Shown here: positions 14,568 to 19,238 of the stretch, in pieces
How positions within the stretch are numbered: the first letter of the stretch is position 1
Layout of the letters: every line of letters begins with the position of its first letter
Assembly: GCA_934435205.1 (NCBI GenBank)
Contig: CAKSAK010000005.1
Span: forward strand, 23,906 to 55,905
Length of the DNA stretch: 32,000 nucleotides
Reading direction: 5' to 3'
From: an uncultured Ruminococcus sp.
GTDB lineage: Bacteria > Bacillota > Clostridia > Oscillospirales > Ruminococcaceae
Program-made: the position numbers and the translations under genes
The notes under the pieces: generated by a model
What the model saw: the letters and a program-made list of their open reading frames with translations, nothing else
Database searches by the model: none
What the model was told of the DNA's origin: nothing

Positions 14568-14644
14568 GCGTCTGTAGCTCAGTTGGATAGAGCGCAAGAC
14601 TCCGACTCTTGAGGCCGCAGGTTCGATTCCTGTCAGGCGCACCA
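14568..14644 (+). tRNA. tRNA-Arg (anticodon CCG), CCA encoded
   Basis: Manual cloverleaf: acceptor GCGTCTG/CAGGCGC, D arm GCTC-AGTTGGATA-GAGC, anticodon arm CAAGA-CTCCGAC-TCTTG (CCG), variable AGGCC, T arm GCAGG-TTCGATT-CCTGT, discriminator A + CCA. Confidence 0.9.
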
Positions 14645-15821: not shown

Positions 15822-15855
15822 TTTTGTGAAATGATCACAATTGGAGGAAGAAAAT

Positions 15856-16203
15856 ATGACTGAAATGTACAAAAGGATAAAAGAGCTATGCGAGGAAAAC
15901 TATATGACTGTATCGCAGATGTGCAAGGAGCTGTCTATAACGAGGAGCTGTTTATCTGAGCTGAGCAAAGGCAGGACGGAACGACTTTCCGCAGAAAATT
16001 CTACAAAGATAGCGAACCGATTTGGAGTGAGCGTACAGTATCTTATATCTGGCAGGGAAGAAGATTTTGACACGAAGCTGAAATATGCATTATTCAACGG
16101 CACGCTTGGCGTGACGGACGAAATGTTTGACGAGGTCAAGCAGTATGCAGAAATGGTCATGCTCAGAGAGGAAGCAAAGCGCAGAAAGGCTGGTGAAAAG
16201 TGA
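15856..16203 (+). CDS. XRE-family helix-turn-helix transcriptional regulator
   Basis: MYKRIKELCEENYMTVSQMCKELSITRSCLSELSKGRTERLSAENSTKIANRFGVSVQYLISG is a classic HTH_3 pattern. ATG 15856 lies 8 nt after GGAGG. The track start is a TTG at 15841. Confidence 0.85.
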   Translation: MTEMYKRIKELCEENYMTVSQMCKELSITRSCLSELSKGRTERLSAENSTKIANRFGVSVQYLISGREEDFDTKLKYALFNGTLGVTDEMFDEVKQYAEMVMLREEAKRRKAGEK

Positions 16204-16206
16204 GAG

Positions 16207-16611
16207 ATGACGAACATACAGGAATTGTATGATATTTGCAGCAGAGAGAACATAACTATAGATTTTATTGATTGTCCGAAGTGCGGAGCGATATCTCTTT
16301 TCGGTGCAGGTGGCTGTGCGATCGGCATAGACAGCCAGACGCCTGCAAGGCTTTTGAAAGAGCGCACTGCTCACGAGATAGGTCACTGCGTAAAGGGAGC
16401 GTTTTACAACAGATACGCCACGGCAGACAACATCTCACAGCATGAATACCGAGCAGACAAATGGGCGATAGAAAATCTGATACCGAAAAGCGAGCTTATC
16501 AAAGCCATAAAGAAAAATCTTGACAGCATTTATCTGCTTGCACAGCATTTTGATGTGAGCGAGGATTTTATGCTAAAGGCTTGCAGGTATTACGGGGTTT
16601 ATTTTGGGTAG
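16207..16611 (+). CDS. ImmA/IrrE-family metallopeptidase (DUF955-like)
   Basis: HEIGH zinc-binding motif (TAHEIGHCV) and a downstream E...ADKWA. Located 3 nt after the XRE stop, the typical ImmR/ImmA pairing. Confidence 0.8.
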   Translation: MTNIQELYDICSRENITIDFIDCPKCGAISLFGAGGCAIGIDSQTPARLLKERTAHEIGHCVKGAFYNRYATADNISQHEYRADKWAIENLIPKSELIKAIKKNLDSIYLLAQHFDVSEDFMLKACRYYGVYFG

Positions 16612-16655: not shown

Positions 16656-18359
16656 TTAGTATAACGATTGTGCAGGTATTTCTTCAAATGTTCCTATTTT
16701 GTCAAACAGTTCCTTTGTTACATAGATGGTTATATATTGGTCATTTGTTTTAAACTTATAAGGTTTATAAACCTCTACTCGCTTTACGGCAACATAATCA
16801 TCGACATCAATATTAGGGTATATCTTTGTTATTTCACAACGATCAATAACAACATCAGGAGCTCCCTGTTCACGCCACTTATCAAAAATCGTTTTAGTTT
16901 CTTCTTCAGTTGATGATTGATAGTACATAAATGTTTTATTATGGTTATCAATATTGTAGTTGTAAAAAATATTGTCATCAAAATACGGAAGAATAGCTGT
17001 AGCCAATGCCTGAAGTTTTGGATAATCATGCCATTGATAGTCAGATTCATCAACCTTTGAGTCAGTTTTTTTTGAAGTATCATTACTTACAGCGATGTGT
17101 CCCCATGACGATAAAATTTTATAATCATAAAGCCTATATTCTTTGATAAACTCTGCAGCTTCTTTATACCAATAATCAAAGCGGACATCGATATATGAAG
17201 AATATGCACTCCATGCAATAGGCACTACCATAGGCAAAAAAGCTATAGCTACTACTACTTTTTTCAAACCTCCTCTAAGGGAAGAAACCGCCTTATTTAT
17301 GTACTCTGGCAACTCAATTTTGCCGTTATCGGCGAGTATACCCCAAAACACAAATATCAAAAATACACCAACCATCCCCGAATGATAAGGCGAAGAATAA
17401 ATTAATGCCGAAAACAATCCAAAAAACGAATATGGTATTATAAAAGTAAGAAGCTTTTTATTTTTATGCAGAATACTTACTGCAATAATGAACACCAAAA
17501 TTGCGGTGATAAACTGAGGTATAATACTTGCCACATCATATGAATCCAGTTTACTGTCTGGCATTTGTATCAGAAAAGCTTCAGAGAGATACATTATATA
17601 CCACATTACTTGAACGTAACTGAACGAGAATGCAAACAATTCTTTTGTTGTTTCATGACCTGCGGTATATGTATTTTCATTTGGAAAAATCTCTATAATT
17701 ATTGCTATTGCCAGAACAAGCAGACCAAGCATCATCCAACAGTGTTTGTCAGAAAATATTTTTAAAAATGTTTTTTCTTTAACATACTTGCTTATTATTT
17801 CTGAAAGCCACACCACACACAATCCACCTGCAAATATTATACCAAACGAGTGAATCATACACATAAATGCCAATGAAAATACATACCTTAGTGGCTTTTC
17901 ATTTCGGGAGGAATAAAATACTGCTGCGAGAAAAAATGACAATGTTAAGATAGAATAGGGTCTGCTAATAACACCGTACTGATAAAACAGGAAGAAGTTA
18001 AATGGCAGCAGACAACGTATCAGCTTTGGAAAAGGCGACTTAAAGAGCAACACTGCTACTGCAAGAGTCATGAAAAAGATATTTACTATGGCAAGGGACA
18101 GCTCATATGGTGCGCCAAGCTTTGCGAAAGGCACCAATATCAAATGCCACAGCGGCGGGTGACCCTCATAGTGTGGTATCTCAAAAAGTATCTCCTTTAT
18201 AGTTCCCGAACGTGCTATCGCCCACGACTGAGCTTCATCAAACCACGGCTCGTGAAAAAACGATATAGTGCAAACGCCAAGCAGGTATATTATCAGCGTT
18301 ATAACATCGCATTTTCCATGCTCTTTACTGAACGCCCAGCTTTTAAATTTCTCTTTCAT
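16656..18359 (-). CDS. Polytopic membrane glycosyltransferase, GT-C fold (PMT_2/ArnT-like), with C-terminal soluble domain
   Basis: 567 aa, about 11-13 TM segments. First-loop motif FHEPWFDEAQSW resembles the DE-x-x-(Y/W) acidic loop of GT39/GT83 enzymes. GGAGG lies 6 nt before the ATG. The gene is AT-rich: spot counts give 25-32% GC per 60-nt line here versus 50% on one 60-nt metG line. Confidence 0.65.
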   Translation of the reverse strand: MKEKFKSWAFSKEHGKCDVITLIIYLLGVCTISFFHEPWFDEAQSWAIARSGTIKEILFEIPHYEGHPPLWHLILVPFAKLGAPYELSLAIVNIFFMTLAVAVLLFKSPFPKLIRCLLPFNFFLFYQYGVISRPYSILTLSFFLAAVFYSSRNEKPLRYVFSLAFMCMIHSFGIIFAGGLCVVWLSEIISKYVKEKTFLKIFSDKHCWMMLGLLVLAIAIIIEIFPNENTYTAGHETTKELFAFSFSYVQVMWYIMYLSEAFLIQMPDSKLDSYDVASIIPQFITAILVFIIAVSILHKNKKLLTFIIPYSFFGLFSALIYSSPYHSGMVGVFLIFVFWGILADNGKIELPEYINKAVSSLRGGLKKVVVAIAFLPMVVPIAWSAYSSYIDVRFDYWYKEAAEFIKEYRLYDYKILSSWGHIAVSNDTSKKTDSKVDESDYQWHDYPKLQALATAILPYFDDNIFYNYNIDNHNKTFMYYQSSTEEETKTIFDKWREQGAPDVVIDRCEITKIYPNIDVDDYVAVKRVEVYKPYKFKTNDQYITIYVTKELFDKIGTFEEIPAQSLY

Positions 18360-18391
18360 TAATATCCTCCAAAAAAATAATTGACATATAA

Positions 18392-18420
18392 ATTATACCA
18401 TTTATTAAGAAATTAGTCAA
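18392..18420 (-). promoter_or_regulatory. Sigma-A type promoter for the GT-C gene
   Basis: Minus strand: TTGACT (18420-18415), 17-nt spacer, TATAAT (18397-18392). Confidence 0.55.
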
Positions 18421-18449
18421 TGTTTTTGTAAAACTTTTTGCGACAAATA

Positions 18450-18478
18450 TTGACAAAGAAACAAATGTGTGATAAAAT
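18450..18478 (+). promoter_or_regulatory. Sigma-A type promoter for the small-peptide (toxin-like) mRNA
   Basis: TTGACA (18450-18455), 17-nt spacer, TAAAAT (18473-18478). The predicted start is about 18485, immediately before GGCATACTGC. Confidence 0.55.
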
Positions 18479-18557
18479 TACTTTATGGCATACTGCAAAA
18501 CGGTAGGCGGTTTAAATCATCCTCCAAAAGCCTCATGGCTAAGGAGGTGAGCGACAC

Positions 18558-18644
18558 ATGAGCGTTATGGAAGTCTTAACTTTGCTTCTACTTATAACAA
18601 ACATAATTGGGATTGTGCTCAATGTCTGCAATAAAAAGAAATAA
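18558..18644 (+). CDS. 28-aa hydrophobic peptide MSVMEVLTLLLLITNIIGIVLNVCNKKK (type I toxin / holin-like-toxin candidate)
   Basis: Below the ORF-track size cut-off. Strong SD AAGGAGGTGA 7 nt before the ATG. One TM helix followed by a KKK tail. From memory it resembles the short Firmicute peptides annotated as putative holin-like toxin (Pfam Hol_Tox). This was not computed. Confidence 0.55.
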   Translation: MSVMEVLTLLLLITNIIGIVLNVCNKKK

Positions 18645-18730
18645 CCGCCCAACTACCACATAGGACGGTTATTATAAATAATAGTCAACCATGGAGGTAA
18701 ACCGCTTACAGCAGTATGCCTCTTTTTGTT
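18633..18730 (-). ncRNA. Putative convergent antisense RNA (antitoxin candidate) overlapping the 3' end of the peptide mRNA
   Basis: Bounded by a minus-strand promoter (18765-18737) and a minus-strand terminator ATAACCG-N18-CGGTTAT + TTCTTTTT (18672-18633). It contains TTACCTCCAT, which is complementary to 8 of the 10 nt of the peptide SD region AAGGAGGTGA. It could alternatively be the pilin-2 3' UTR. Confidence 0.4.
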
Positions 18731-18736
18731 ATCTTT

Positions 18737-18765
18737 ATCATACCACAATCGTGGCAAATTGTCAA
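18737..18765 (-). promoter_or_regulatory. Sigma-A type promoter for the antisense RNA
   Basis: Minus strand: TTGACA (18765-18760), 17-nt spacer, TATGAT (18742-18737). Starts 6 nt after the pilin-2 stop codon. Confidence 0.5.
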
Positions 18766-18770
18766 GTGTG

Positions 18771-19238
18771 CTAGAACTTCACGCCCCAACTGAAATTCTC
18801 AGGGAGATCGTCAAGTTTGTTCGCAGGGTCAGGATACTGCCCTACTATGCTTTTAGACGTGGGTGTTCTTGAATCACACCACTGTGCAAGCTTGTATCTG
18901 CCGTCCTCCCCTGCTATCCAAAAGGCATAGCCTGCATTATCGCCATTGACGTTAAGTGCGTCATGGACGGCTTTTTCAAGCTTTTTGGATTCGTCAGGTT
19001 CAGCGGAGCAATCGATCACAGCCGTGCATGACTGAACGTCGATATCTTTGCCCTCACACTGCATATCTGTCACGACCGCATTTACAGTATTGAACACTAT
19101 CTTTGCATTGCTGTTTGCGCTTTTATGCTTCGCTTTTCTGATATAACTCATCATAGTTGGCACAAGAATAGCCGCAAGTACGCCTATTATGGCAATAACC
19201 ACCACAAGCTCCACCAAAGTAAAGCCTTTTTTATTCAT
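18771..19238 (-). CDS. Type IV pilin-like protein (prepilin N-terminal cleavage/methylation domain), paralog 2
   Basis: MNKKGFTLVELVVVIAIIGVLAAILVP is a class III signal peptide (G/FTLVE). It shares the AQW...GQYPDP C-terminal motifs with paralog 1. Confidence 0.88.
   Translation of the reverse strand: MNKKGFTLVELVVVIAIIGVLAAILVPTMMSYIRKAKHKSANSNAKIVFNTVNAVVTDMQCEGKDIDVQSCTAVIDCSAEPDESKKLEKAVHDALNVNGDNAGYAFWIAGEDGRYKLAQWCDSRTPTSKSIVGQYPDPANKLDDLPENFSWGVKF

Follow-up and report, generated by a model that had tools for sequence, protein, structure and literature searches.

A candidate type I toxin-antitoxin-like cassette family of Ruminococcus, Hominimerdicola and their phages

What is encoded in a 411-nucleotide (nt) intergenic gap of an uncultured Ruminococcus sp. 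that displays two convergent promoters and a short hydrophobic open reading frame (ORF)? The gap lies in a 32,000-nt stretch of contig CAKSAK010000005.1 (GenBank assembly GCA_934435205.1; hereinafter the window), between the start of a gene for a 567-amino-acid (aa) membrane protein and the stop codon of a type IV pilin-like gene. An earlier inspection of the letters alone (hereinafter the original prediction) read positions 18450-18765 as an unannotated type I toxin-antitoxin (TA) module of the 3'-overlapping kind, in the style of txpA/RatA and bsrG/SR4 of Bacillus subtilis. We find support for this reading in the conservation of a whole family of such cassettes, selection on the ORF, covariation in an RNA helix joining the mRNA ends, the proximity of the peptides to the Hol_Tox family and a bsrG-like mRNA architecture. 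Judging from sequence, we consider it probable, at roughly seven chances in ten, that 18450-18765 is a working type I TA-like cassette. It is well supported that it belongs to a previously undescribed cassette family, whose hosts are Ruminococcus/Hominimerdicola (Oscillospiraceae) and their phages.

Two predicted convergent genes in one intergenic gap

On the plus strand, the proposed toxin gene (hereinafter the toxin gene) starts with a promoter (18450-18478) composed of a -35 box TTGACA (18450-18455), a 17-nt spacer and a TG-extended -10 box TAAAAT (18473-18478), which agrees with the consensus at 11 of 12 positions, as the original prediction had it. From the -10 box and from the U-tract CTCTTTTTGTT behind the 3' arm of the helix described below, we infer a toxin mRNA of about 250 nt (18485-18735). 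Its ORF (18558-18644; 28 codons, ATG at 18558) is read directly from the sequence and specifies the peptide MSVMEVLTLLLLITNIIGIVLNVCNKKK, in which about 23 mostly hydrophobic residues, containing a predicted transmembrane (TM) helix, precede a CNKKK tail; with this length the peptide falls well inside the generic range of type I toxins (<60 aa). Translation would be served by the Shine-Dalgarno (SD) sequence GGAGGTGA (18543-18550), with the ATG 7 nt downstream, and further upstream lies an anti-SD segment, TCATCCTCC (18517-18525).

The 251-nt transcript folds to a minimum free energy (MFE) of -77.3 kcal/mol, against -53.6 +/- 4.6 kcal/mol for 200 dinucleotide shuffles (z = -5.18; 0/200), and the MFE structure includes exactly the two elements that had been proposed, a 5'-3' helix and an anti-SD/SD hairpin. 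The 5' strand of the long-range helix (18487-18514) is made up of GGCATACTGC (18487-18496) and GTAGGCGGTTTA (18503-18514), which pair with 18698-18720. The region of its 3' strand (18693-18720) opens with a pseudo-SD, GGAGG (18693-18697), followed by TAAACCGCTTAC (18698-18709) and GCAGTATGCC (18711-18720). The complementarity earlier noted, of GGCATACTGC and GCGGTTT (18507-18513) to AAACCGC (18699-18705) and GCAGTATGCC, thus stands, and the second helix proves longer than then described, at 12 bp (18503-18514 with 18698-18709). Sequestration of the SD by TCATCCTCC is likewise recovered, so that the predicted fold has both the occluded SD and the 5'-3' fold-back by which translation of type I toxin mRNAs is repressed. 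The unpaired probability of the SD is 0.02-0.05 in all four modelled states of the mRNA (nascent 5' untranslated region (UTR); full-length mRNA; mRNA ending at the internal hairpin; mRNA with its 3' ~100 nt occupied by the antisense RNA), and the same local SD hairpin is predicted in all cassette types. The 3' arm can alternatively make a local hairpin followed by the U-tract (-13.4 kcal/mol), in which we see a plausible terminator of the toxin mRNA. Pairing of the anti-SD with the 3' GGAGG was also considered for the window and rejected, as it is absent from that MFE structure.

On the minus strand, a second promoter (18737-18765; -35 TTGACA at 18765-18760, 17 nt, TG-extended -10 TATGAT at 18742-18737; again 11/12) begins 6 nt past the stop codon of the pilin gene. 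It is matched by an intrinsic terminator (18628-18673), with the stem AATAACCGTCC/GGCGGTTATT in a hairpin at 18673-18640 and a U-tract that is the complement of 18639-18628; the original prediction was right on both elements. Promoter and terminator delimit a predicted antisense RNA of about 100 nt (18631-18730) with an A-rich leader, a 5' hairpin, a linker and the terminator, and it is fully complementary to the 3' UTR and the last 4-5 codons of the toxin mRNA. At the sequence level this is an antisense gene with a promoter and terminator of its own and an overlap with its partner. The RNA folds to -28.3 kcal/mol (z = -2.95) as 5' hairpin, single-stranded linker and terminator. The 5' hairpin is the complement of the toxin-mRNA 3' arm region (18693-18720), and the linker corresponds to a hypervariable spacer between terminator and 3' arm (18674-18692), which we propose to be a copy-specific recognition determinant. 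A second antisense motif that had been pointed out is also present: the minus-strand TTACCTCCAT matches the complement of AAGGAGGTGA, in the SD region, at 8 of 10 positions.

A cassette family in chromosomes and phages

When 185,579 species representatives were scanned genome-wide with a pattern, the 3' arm turned up in five representatives of Ruminococcus/Hominimerdicola, along with 8 chance matches in unrelated genomes (e.g., Bacteroidota and a cyanobacterium), and a metagenome scan gave 2 true matches and 15 unrelated ones. We count 11 distinct full-length chromosomal copies in Ruminococcus/Hominimerdicola genomes, spanning at least four Ruminococcus lineages. The full cassette is found on L001-L003, L043 and L044, where the neighbouring 567-aa protein is 95-100% identical, and on the metagenome contigs L016 and L019. 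In HRGM_1952 (L042) three copies occupy unrelated intergenic sites by aminotransferase, secDF and radC genes, and the related contig L045 has synteny in common with it; S27_Bin2 (L035) has two tandem copies adjoining a pilin gene. Separately, one chance match to the anti-SD..SD..ATG pattern (L021 1693-1800, plus strand, on the environmental metagenome contig Ga0153923_101667) encodes the peptide MSELIRYVLAPLFVGLTIALVNHWLGGRDP behind a sequestered SD and is an unrelated candidate type I toxin. An APxxxG motif makes this peptide look Fst/Ldr-like.

The cassette is also carried by 36 viral contigs of IMG/VR, which fall into three sequence types: type 1 (27 contigs) encodes a peptide one residue off that of the window, type 2 (3 contigs) the peptide MSVLEILTLINVVINIINLANNSKKK, and type 3 (6 contigs, L076-L081; e.g., L076 3423-3810, minus strand) the peptide MDLMELLTFCLVIINIISLCNNIKKK. 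A first viral scan with the window's exact anti-SD..SD pattern returned 0 matches, owing to the different anti-SD of the phage copies, which a peptide-based pattern and a core 5' UTR pattern then recovered. In both phage contexts examined, the cassette sits in moron-like fashion within a structural operon of a tailed phage (PHROG matches with E = 1e-20 to 1e-100) and has its own convergent promoters. The type 1 copy on L049 (10810-11130) separates the major tail protein gene from its neighbour, the next gene, and the type 2 copy on L048 (4165-4497) lies between head-completion genes. Neither this phage carriage nor the toxin-deleted alleles of most relatives, described below, had been seen in the original prediction.

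Nearly every full-length copy has its parts in the same order: plus-strand promoter, 5' arm, anti-SD, variable loop, SD, a 26-36-codon ORF ending in KKK, a terminator hairpin on the stop codon, the hypervariable spacer, GGAGG with the 3' arm and U-tract, and the minus-strand promoter. The toxin promoter, with a TTGACA or TTGACT -35 and a TAnAAT -10, is kept in place, with differing spacers, in all three phage types and in all full-length chromosomal copies except L016, whose boxes (-35 TTAACA, -10 TACAAT) are unmatched by the promoter pattern. Wherever a chromosomal copy has a recognisable promoter, its -10 box ends exactly 8 nt ahead of the 5' arm, and phage types 1-3 differ from this distance. 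The antisense promoter (TTGACA-like -35, TATAAT-like -10, diverged spacers) is present in all full-length copies, in the phage types and in the toxin-deleted alleles. As to length variation, 36-aa toxin forms stem from a 21-nt internal duplication (DIC[K/R]LLF-DICN) in L042 (5643-5753, minus strand) and L045 (10001-10111 and 13084-13194, plus strand), and one chromosomal site holds a 29-aa or a 36-aa form depending on the genome.

Across the 11 chromosomal copies, the share of variable columns is 7-10% in the long-helix strands (7% in the 3' arm region), 48% in ORF codons 2-22, mostly at synonymous or conservative positions, 67% in the anti-SD loop, 73% in the terminator loop, with the terminator stems conserved, and 100% of the ungapped columns in the spacer 18674-18692. 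The ratio of nonsynonymous to synonymous polymorphism (pN/pS) of the ORF is 0.31, and its variable columns divide 12:4:16 among codon positions 1, 2 and 3; by this measure the ORF evolves as a translated hydrophobic peptide under purifying selection. The reading of the ORF as spurious was rejected on this coding selection. Kept in the family alignment are M1, E5, L7, T8, I16 and the N..KKK tail, and the lysine-tailed hydrophobic character is kept in the 26-36-aa relatives. The toxin KKK-stop codons (AAAAAGAAATAA; 18628-18644) are covered by the antisense terminator, being the reverse complement of its U-tract and stem base. This segment is invariant among the TAA-stop variants, with L045c and phage type 3 differing in the stop codon; one DNA stretch therefore serves both genes, and a constraint runs both ways between the lysine tail and the terminator.

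Chromosomal copies by themselves are uninformative about covariation because the helices are invariant there. Across 18 variants, the outer helix is paired in 100% of cells, with 3 pairs changed on both sides, and the inner segment (18503-18514) in 99.5%. In phage type 2, GGCAUACUGC/GCAGUAUGCC is replaced by GGGCGACUGC/GCAGUCGUCC, by which three adjacent pairs are altered on both strands, and in phage type 1 two nucleotides are lost from each helix strand. The covariation score of the 5'-3' helix is 0.083 as compared to 0.036 +/- 0.005 in shuffles (0/500), with all slid controls far lower. The 5'/3' duplex energy lies between -30.5 and -35.7 kcal/mol in 18/18 variants, and phage type 3 keeps the 5'/3' interaction, at -40 kcal/mol, with a different outer helix. 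The evidence supports a functional long-range 5'-3' helix that appears to have been kept by compensatory change in two phage lineages. In the terminator, one compensatory change from A-U to G-C in L045c is linked to a change of the stop codon from TAA to TGA. The CCUCC core of the anti-SD is invariant except in phage type 3, where the SD changes along with it: in this type CCCUC replaces the window's CCUCC in the anti-SD, GGGGG its GGAGG in the SD and GGAGGGA its GGAGGU in the 3' pseudo-SD, which are mutually compatible changes, and in the MFE structure of this type the anti-SD pairs with the 3' motif, not with the SD. Thus, the peptide and the paired RNA structure, whose conservation in relatives had been put forward as a check of the original prediction, are both kept across chromosomal and phage copies.

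At the locus of the window, most related genomes lack 148 nt (window 18456-18603). The deletion spans the toxin -10 box through codon 15, with 5' UTR, SD and start codon included, and it leaves the antisense promoter, antisense 5' hairpin and terminator almost invariant, with the linker and promoter spacers well diverged; its boundaries are ambiguous by 3 nt because ACA microhomology occurs at both ends. Its carriers are the loci with a more divergent 567-aa protein (L004-L012, L036 and L041, with the same junction in L036 and L041) and include P0003 (indexed in 1,893 assembly-collection blocks), P0015, P0041 (R. bicirculans), H. aceti Sanger_31 and Ruminococcus UMGS91. As the toxin half is deleted and the antisense gene kept, an orphan antisense gene is the common state of the locus, and the window has the minority, intact allele. 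Other lesions also spare the antisense gene: L035 has ATG changed to ATT and a lost SD, and the L042b copy a frameshift and a 15-nt promoter spacer. Such independent toxin-inactivating lesions with a retained antisense gene would fit a toxin/antitoxin relationship.

As for homology, the only Pfam family that the peptides approach is Hol_Tox (PF16935), which had been suggested as a profile to try: it is matched by 8 of the 11 variants, the best with 19.5 bits (E = 8.9e-4) and 17.9 bits (E = 2.9e-3), and all scores stay under the 23.3-bit cut-off. TxpA was confirmed as a member of PF16935, and Fozo et al. treat "holin-like toxins" and the TxpA family as one and the same (PMC2887945). Alignment of the family with TxpA by hhalign, in which TxpA is represented by 3 sequences only, gave a probability of 39.8% (P = 3e-4) over 22 columns from residue 1, with M1, S2, E5, L7, N15 and G18 in common. 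Membership in TxpA/Hol_Tox is not established because the defining threshold is not reached; a remote relationship seems plausible from these profiles. NCBIfam, PADLOC and PHROGs yielded nothing meaningful for the family peptides, a tblastn search of the GenBank phage and plasmid collections with the peptides as queries gave no match, an outcome to which the low-complexity filter may contribute, and the 32-kb window has no paralogue of the cassette. A search of a large protein collection, with a 63-aa stop-to-stop ORF from a paralogue as the query, found one 36-aa family member and no 28-aa form; this and the lack of an Rfam match bear out the description of the module as unannotated.

Proposed mechanism, competing explanations and genomic setting

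Putting these elements together, we propose that a consensus sigma-A-type promoter makes an mRNA of about 250 nt, the 3' end of which can first fold into the local hairpin and then, as modelled, be taken over by the 5' end, with which it makes the long helix, a much stronger structure. The first ~30 nt are predicted, with support from covariation, to pair with the last ~30 nt in a 22-bp interrupted helix, and the upstream anti-SD to lock the SD in an 8-bp hairpin; the mRNA would therefore be compact and translationally inert on its own. The convergent promoter would make the antisense RNA of about 100 nt, perfectly complementary to the last codons and the 3' UTR, and hence to the long helix's 3' strand. 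The two RNAs probably make first contact at their terminator loops, which are complementary, and at the hypervariable linker; these sites would also confer copy specificity. The resulting ~100-bp duplex might then be subject to decay of the RNase III type, by analogy with the B. subtilis systems. In the models, antisense binding sets the 5' strand of the mRNA free and leaves the SD hairpin in place or tighter, in the manner of bsrG/SR4. A fall in the antisense RNA would allow synthesis of the 28-aa peptide, which would enter the membrane, its KKK tail on the inner side, and arrest growth. We propose this combination of degradation with a maintained translational block because of the bsrG/SR4-like layout and the B. 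subtilis precedent of overlap and RNase III, the characterised systems of that species all having a 3' overlap of 100-140 bp and RNase III-assisted decay (PMC6562991).

Several observations weigh against a working TA cassette or parts of this scheme. The models keep the SD occluded whether or not the antisense RNA is bound, and so offer no activation step. The anti-SD/SD stem has one U-A to C-G change, in phage type 3, and is not significant in the shuffle test (56/500), and the covariation of the helices comes from few independent lineages: helix 1 has two phage types to draw on, and the other changes, in the terminator and the anti-SD/SD stem, are single events of little statistical weight. 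No family peptide reaches the Hol_Tox gathering threshold of 23.3 bits in the Pfam search, and the window peptide itself scores 7 bits (E = 7.2). Among Rfam families at gathering thresholds the window matches only a tRNA and thus no antitoxin family; the best matches of 18350-18850 are at chance level (RnaG, 18.7 of 153 bits; RT-6, 15.6 of 46.7 bits; Chlorobi-RRM, 14.5 of 45 bits). Finally, the minus-strand terminator would serve the upstream pilin gene too, and the antisense region may have another role, being conserved where the toxin is gone.

A rival reading is a peptide that is not toxic at all, i.e., a conserved small membrane peptide with a regulatory or accessory function, the level of which is tuned by the cis-antisense RNA. 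Purifying selection indeed shows function rather than toxicity, and the family's shortfall against Hol_Tox tells the same way; moreover, the candidate toxin YhzE-2 proved non-toxic when overexpressed (PMC2887945), and BsrE is toxic only on overexpression (PMC6562991). However, multi-copy and tandem spread and carriage as a phage moron characterise type I toxin loci, and a doubly locked translation and the repeated loss of the peptide half with the antisense gene kept are typical of them. On balance a non-toxic peptide strikes us as fairly unlikely.

A different role for the antisense half alone is suggested by its orphan state. The retained antisense genes may be domesticated antitoxins directed at the toxin mRNAs of incoming phage or genomic cassettes and might amount to an RNA-level anti-addiction or immunity element. 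We leave such a role open because the orphan antisense gene is strongly retained and non-cognate antisense/mRNA duplexes are predicted to be stable (-96 to -144 kcal/mol, versus about -175 kcal/mol for cognate ones). Coupled to it is a possible three-way switch in the family, in which the anti-SD may choose between the real SD and the 3' pseudo-SD, with the antisense RNA, which has its own anti-SD copy, deciding between them; we considered it because phage type 3 shows joint changes of anti-SD, SD and pseudo-SD. We hold this combined proposal to be speculative and, as it stands, unlikely.

The same retention could mean that the minus-strand elements are mainly a 3' UTR or terminator of the pilin operon, or an independent trans-acting small RNA, and that the plus-strand ORF is incidental here. 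Besides the closeness of the antisense promoter to the pilin stop codon, there is no other terminator between the pilin gene and 18633, the antisense region is almost invariant in toxin-less alleles, and the genome scan found only the toxin-deleted copy in H. aceti and UMGS91. Yet the same cassette, with ORF, SD hairpin and both promoters, occurs near secDF, aminotransferase and radC genes and in phage operons; the ORF shows coding selection; and the 5' arm, which is part of the plus-strand transcript only, covaries with the 3' arm, all of which renders this explanation very improbable. Still less credible is a miniature non-autonomous mobile element resembling a miniature inverted-repeat transposable element, in which the arms would be terminal inverted repeats and not strands of an RNA helix: the many copies at different intergenic sites and in phages and the ~27-nt imperfect inverted repeats near the ends recall such elements, but both conserved promoters lie outside the repeats, the homology between copies runs beyond them, changes in the repeats are G-U-tolerant or compensatory and so keep RNA pairing rather than DNA repeat identity, between the repeats lies a coding ORF that is conserved and equipped with an SD, and no target-site duplications or transposase were noticed, with no systematic search for either.

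Should the module work as a type I TA cassette in the manner proposed, it would represent a new family native to abundant human-gut Oscillospiraceae and their phages. To our knowledge, work on type I TA systems has been confined almost wholly to Proteobacteria, Bacilli and Clostridioides difficile, and a full-text literature search found no paper linking them to Ruminococcus. If the proposal is right, the intact form, start-codon mutant, frameshift and 148-nt toxin deletion with retained antitoxin would offer a natural allelic series for the study of commensals and prophages, and the cassette a compact RNA-controlled kill-switch or regulatory part of ~300 nt for genetically hard anaerobes. The cassette also flags a gene class overlooked by the standard annotation of gut metagenomes.

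Turning to the surroundings, the pilin-like gene (18771-19238, minus strand) has an N_methyl motif, in agreement with its earlier label. The other neighbour, a gene for a 567-aa polytopic membrane protein (16656-18359, minus strand), had been called a glycosyltransferase; this label is unsupported because the protein has no Pfam, NCBIfam or Protein Data Bank (PDB) sequence match. Judged by the homologues of this protein, the window belongs among gut Ruminococcus and Hominimerdicola (Oscillospiraceae). In R. bicirculans-type loci the gene adjoins GtrA, GT2 and NTP-transferase genes, which hints at a role for its product in surface glycans. The protein is 62-64% identical between Ruminococcus lineages, and its promoter region (18360-18449) ~99% identical at the same loci; this is a hypervariable gene flanked by conserved sequence. 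Directly adjoining it, 3' of a tRNA gene and metG, are genes for an XRE-type helix-turn-helix protein and an ImmA/IrrE-like M78 peptidase (these surroundings, with the tRNA, at 15841-16611 and 14568-14641, plus strand). The pair is found in window-type loci and missing from R. bicirculans-type loci, and could form a small variable island. The 32-kb window has 16 promoter-like sites that agree with the consensus at 11/12 positions or more, as compared to 0.8 +/- 1.0 in shuffles (about 20-fold enrichment), and 3 of the 16 fall in the 411-nt intergenic region, the third driving the 567-aa gene. Near-consensus TTGACA-17-TATAAT promoters, often TG-extended, are very widely used in the source organism.

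Comparison with known type I systems

Several described systems have features in common with the cassette. In fst/RNAII (par of pAD1) and sprA1/SprA1AS, the SD likewise lies in a 5' stem-loop, a bidirectional terminator is common to both RNAs, and a second antisense motif can pair with the translation-initiation region outside the overlap (PMC8309996), comparable to the CCUCC opposite the SD here. The functional interaction of fst, however, occurs at 5' direct repeats and inhibits translation only, as against ~100 nt of complementarity at the 3' end in the cassette, and the peptide here is without the APxxxG motif of Fst. With hok/Sok (plasmid R1) and aapA1/IsoA1 (Helicobacter pylori) the cassette has in common a 5'-3' long-distance interaction and sequestration of the SD by an anti-SD, which in those systems silence the full-length toxin mRNA (PMC8309996, PMC8594479). 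In contrast, the antisense RNAs of these two act at the 5' region or the ORF, activation proceeds by 3' processing, their hosts are Gram-negative, and there is no sequence relationship.

The nearest taxonomic precedent is provided by the type I toxins of C. difficile, where CD0956.2/RCd10 and CD2907.1/RCd9 are likewise convergent overlapping genes of a member of Clostridia, with unannotated toxins that have a hydrophobic N-terminus and a lysine-rich C-terminus; the type I systems of this species are often prophage-borne, multi-copy and mostly cognate-specific (PMC6563280). These toxins are longer (34-53 aa), and they are reviewed as being without sequence homology to other families (PMC6563280). 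The 3'-end overlap layout is described for Gram-positive families (PMC8594479, PMC6562991), and the gene geometry here, with the antisense RNA overlapping the 3' end, is that of txpA/RatA. The hhalign comparison adds a possible resemblance to TxpA itself, in the form of an N-terminal M-S-x-x-E-x-L followed by a TM helix with Asn near position 15, whereas TxpA is 59 aa long and has a long polar tail. The N-terminus of BsrG (M-T-V-Y-E-S-L) would resemble that of the family peptides as well.

It is with bsrG/SR4, from the B. subtilis prophage SPbeta, that the predicted RNA structures and the gene layout invite the closest comparison. In the bsrG mRNA, structure probing has 5' nt 1-35 paired with 3' nt 232-262 and a stem that contains the SD; the complementarity to SR4 lies in the 3' half of that mRNA, SR4 binding makes the bsrG 5' strand single-stranded and lengthens the SD stem, and the decay is RNase III-dependent (PMC3834814). 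The cassette differs in that its antisense RNA is ~100 nt rather than 180 nt, its antisense terminator lies directly on the toxin stop and KKK codons, its toxin mRNA is without a separate terminator stem-loop after the long helix, the U-tract following directly on the 3' strand or on the alternative local hairpin, and its predicted SD hairpin already reaches 8 bp before any antisense RNA is bound. Moreover, the peptide, of 26-36 aa, has no demonstrated homology to BsrG, and the hosts are strictly anaerobic Oscillospiraceae. What the two have in common is a small hydrophobic lysine-tailed toxin, or candidate toxin here, an mRNA of ~250-300 nt, carriage by prophages, a 5' segment of ~30 nt in a long helix with a 3' segment and an SD in a stem, in the cassette by prediction and covariation, and a convergent antisense RNA complementary to the 3' part of the mRNA, including the 3' strand of the long helix. 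On these modelled features, bsrG/SR4 is the closest functional and architectural model for the Ruminococcus cassette.

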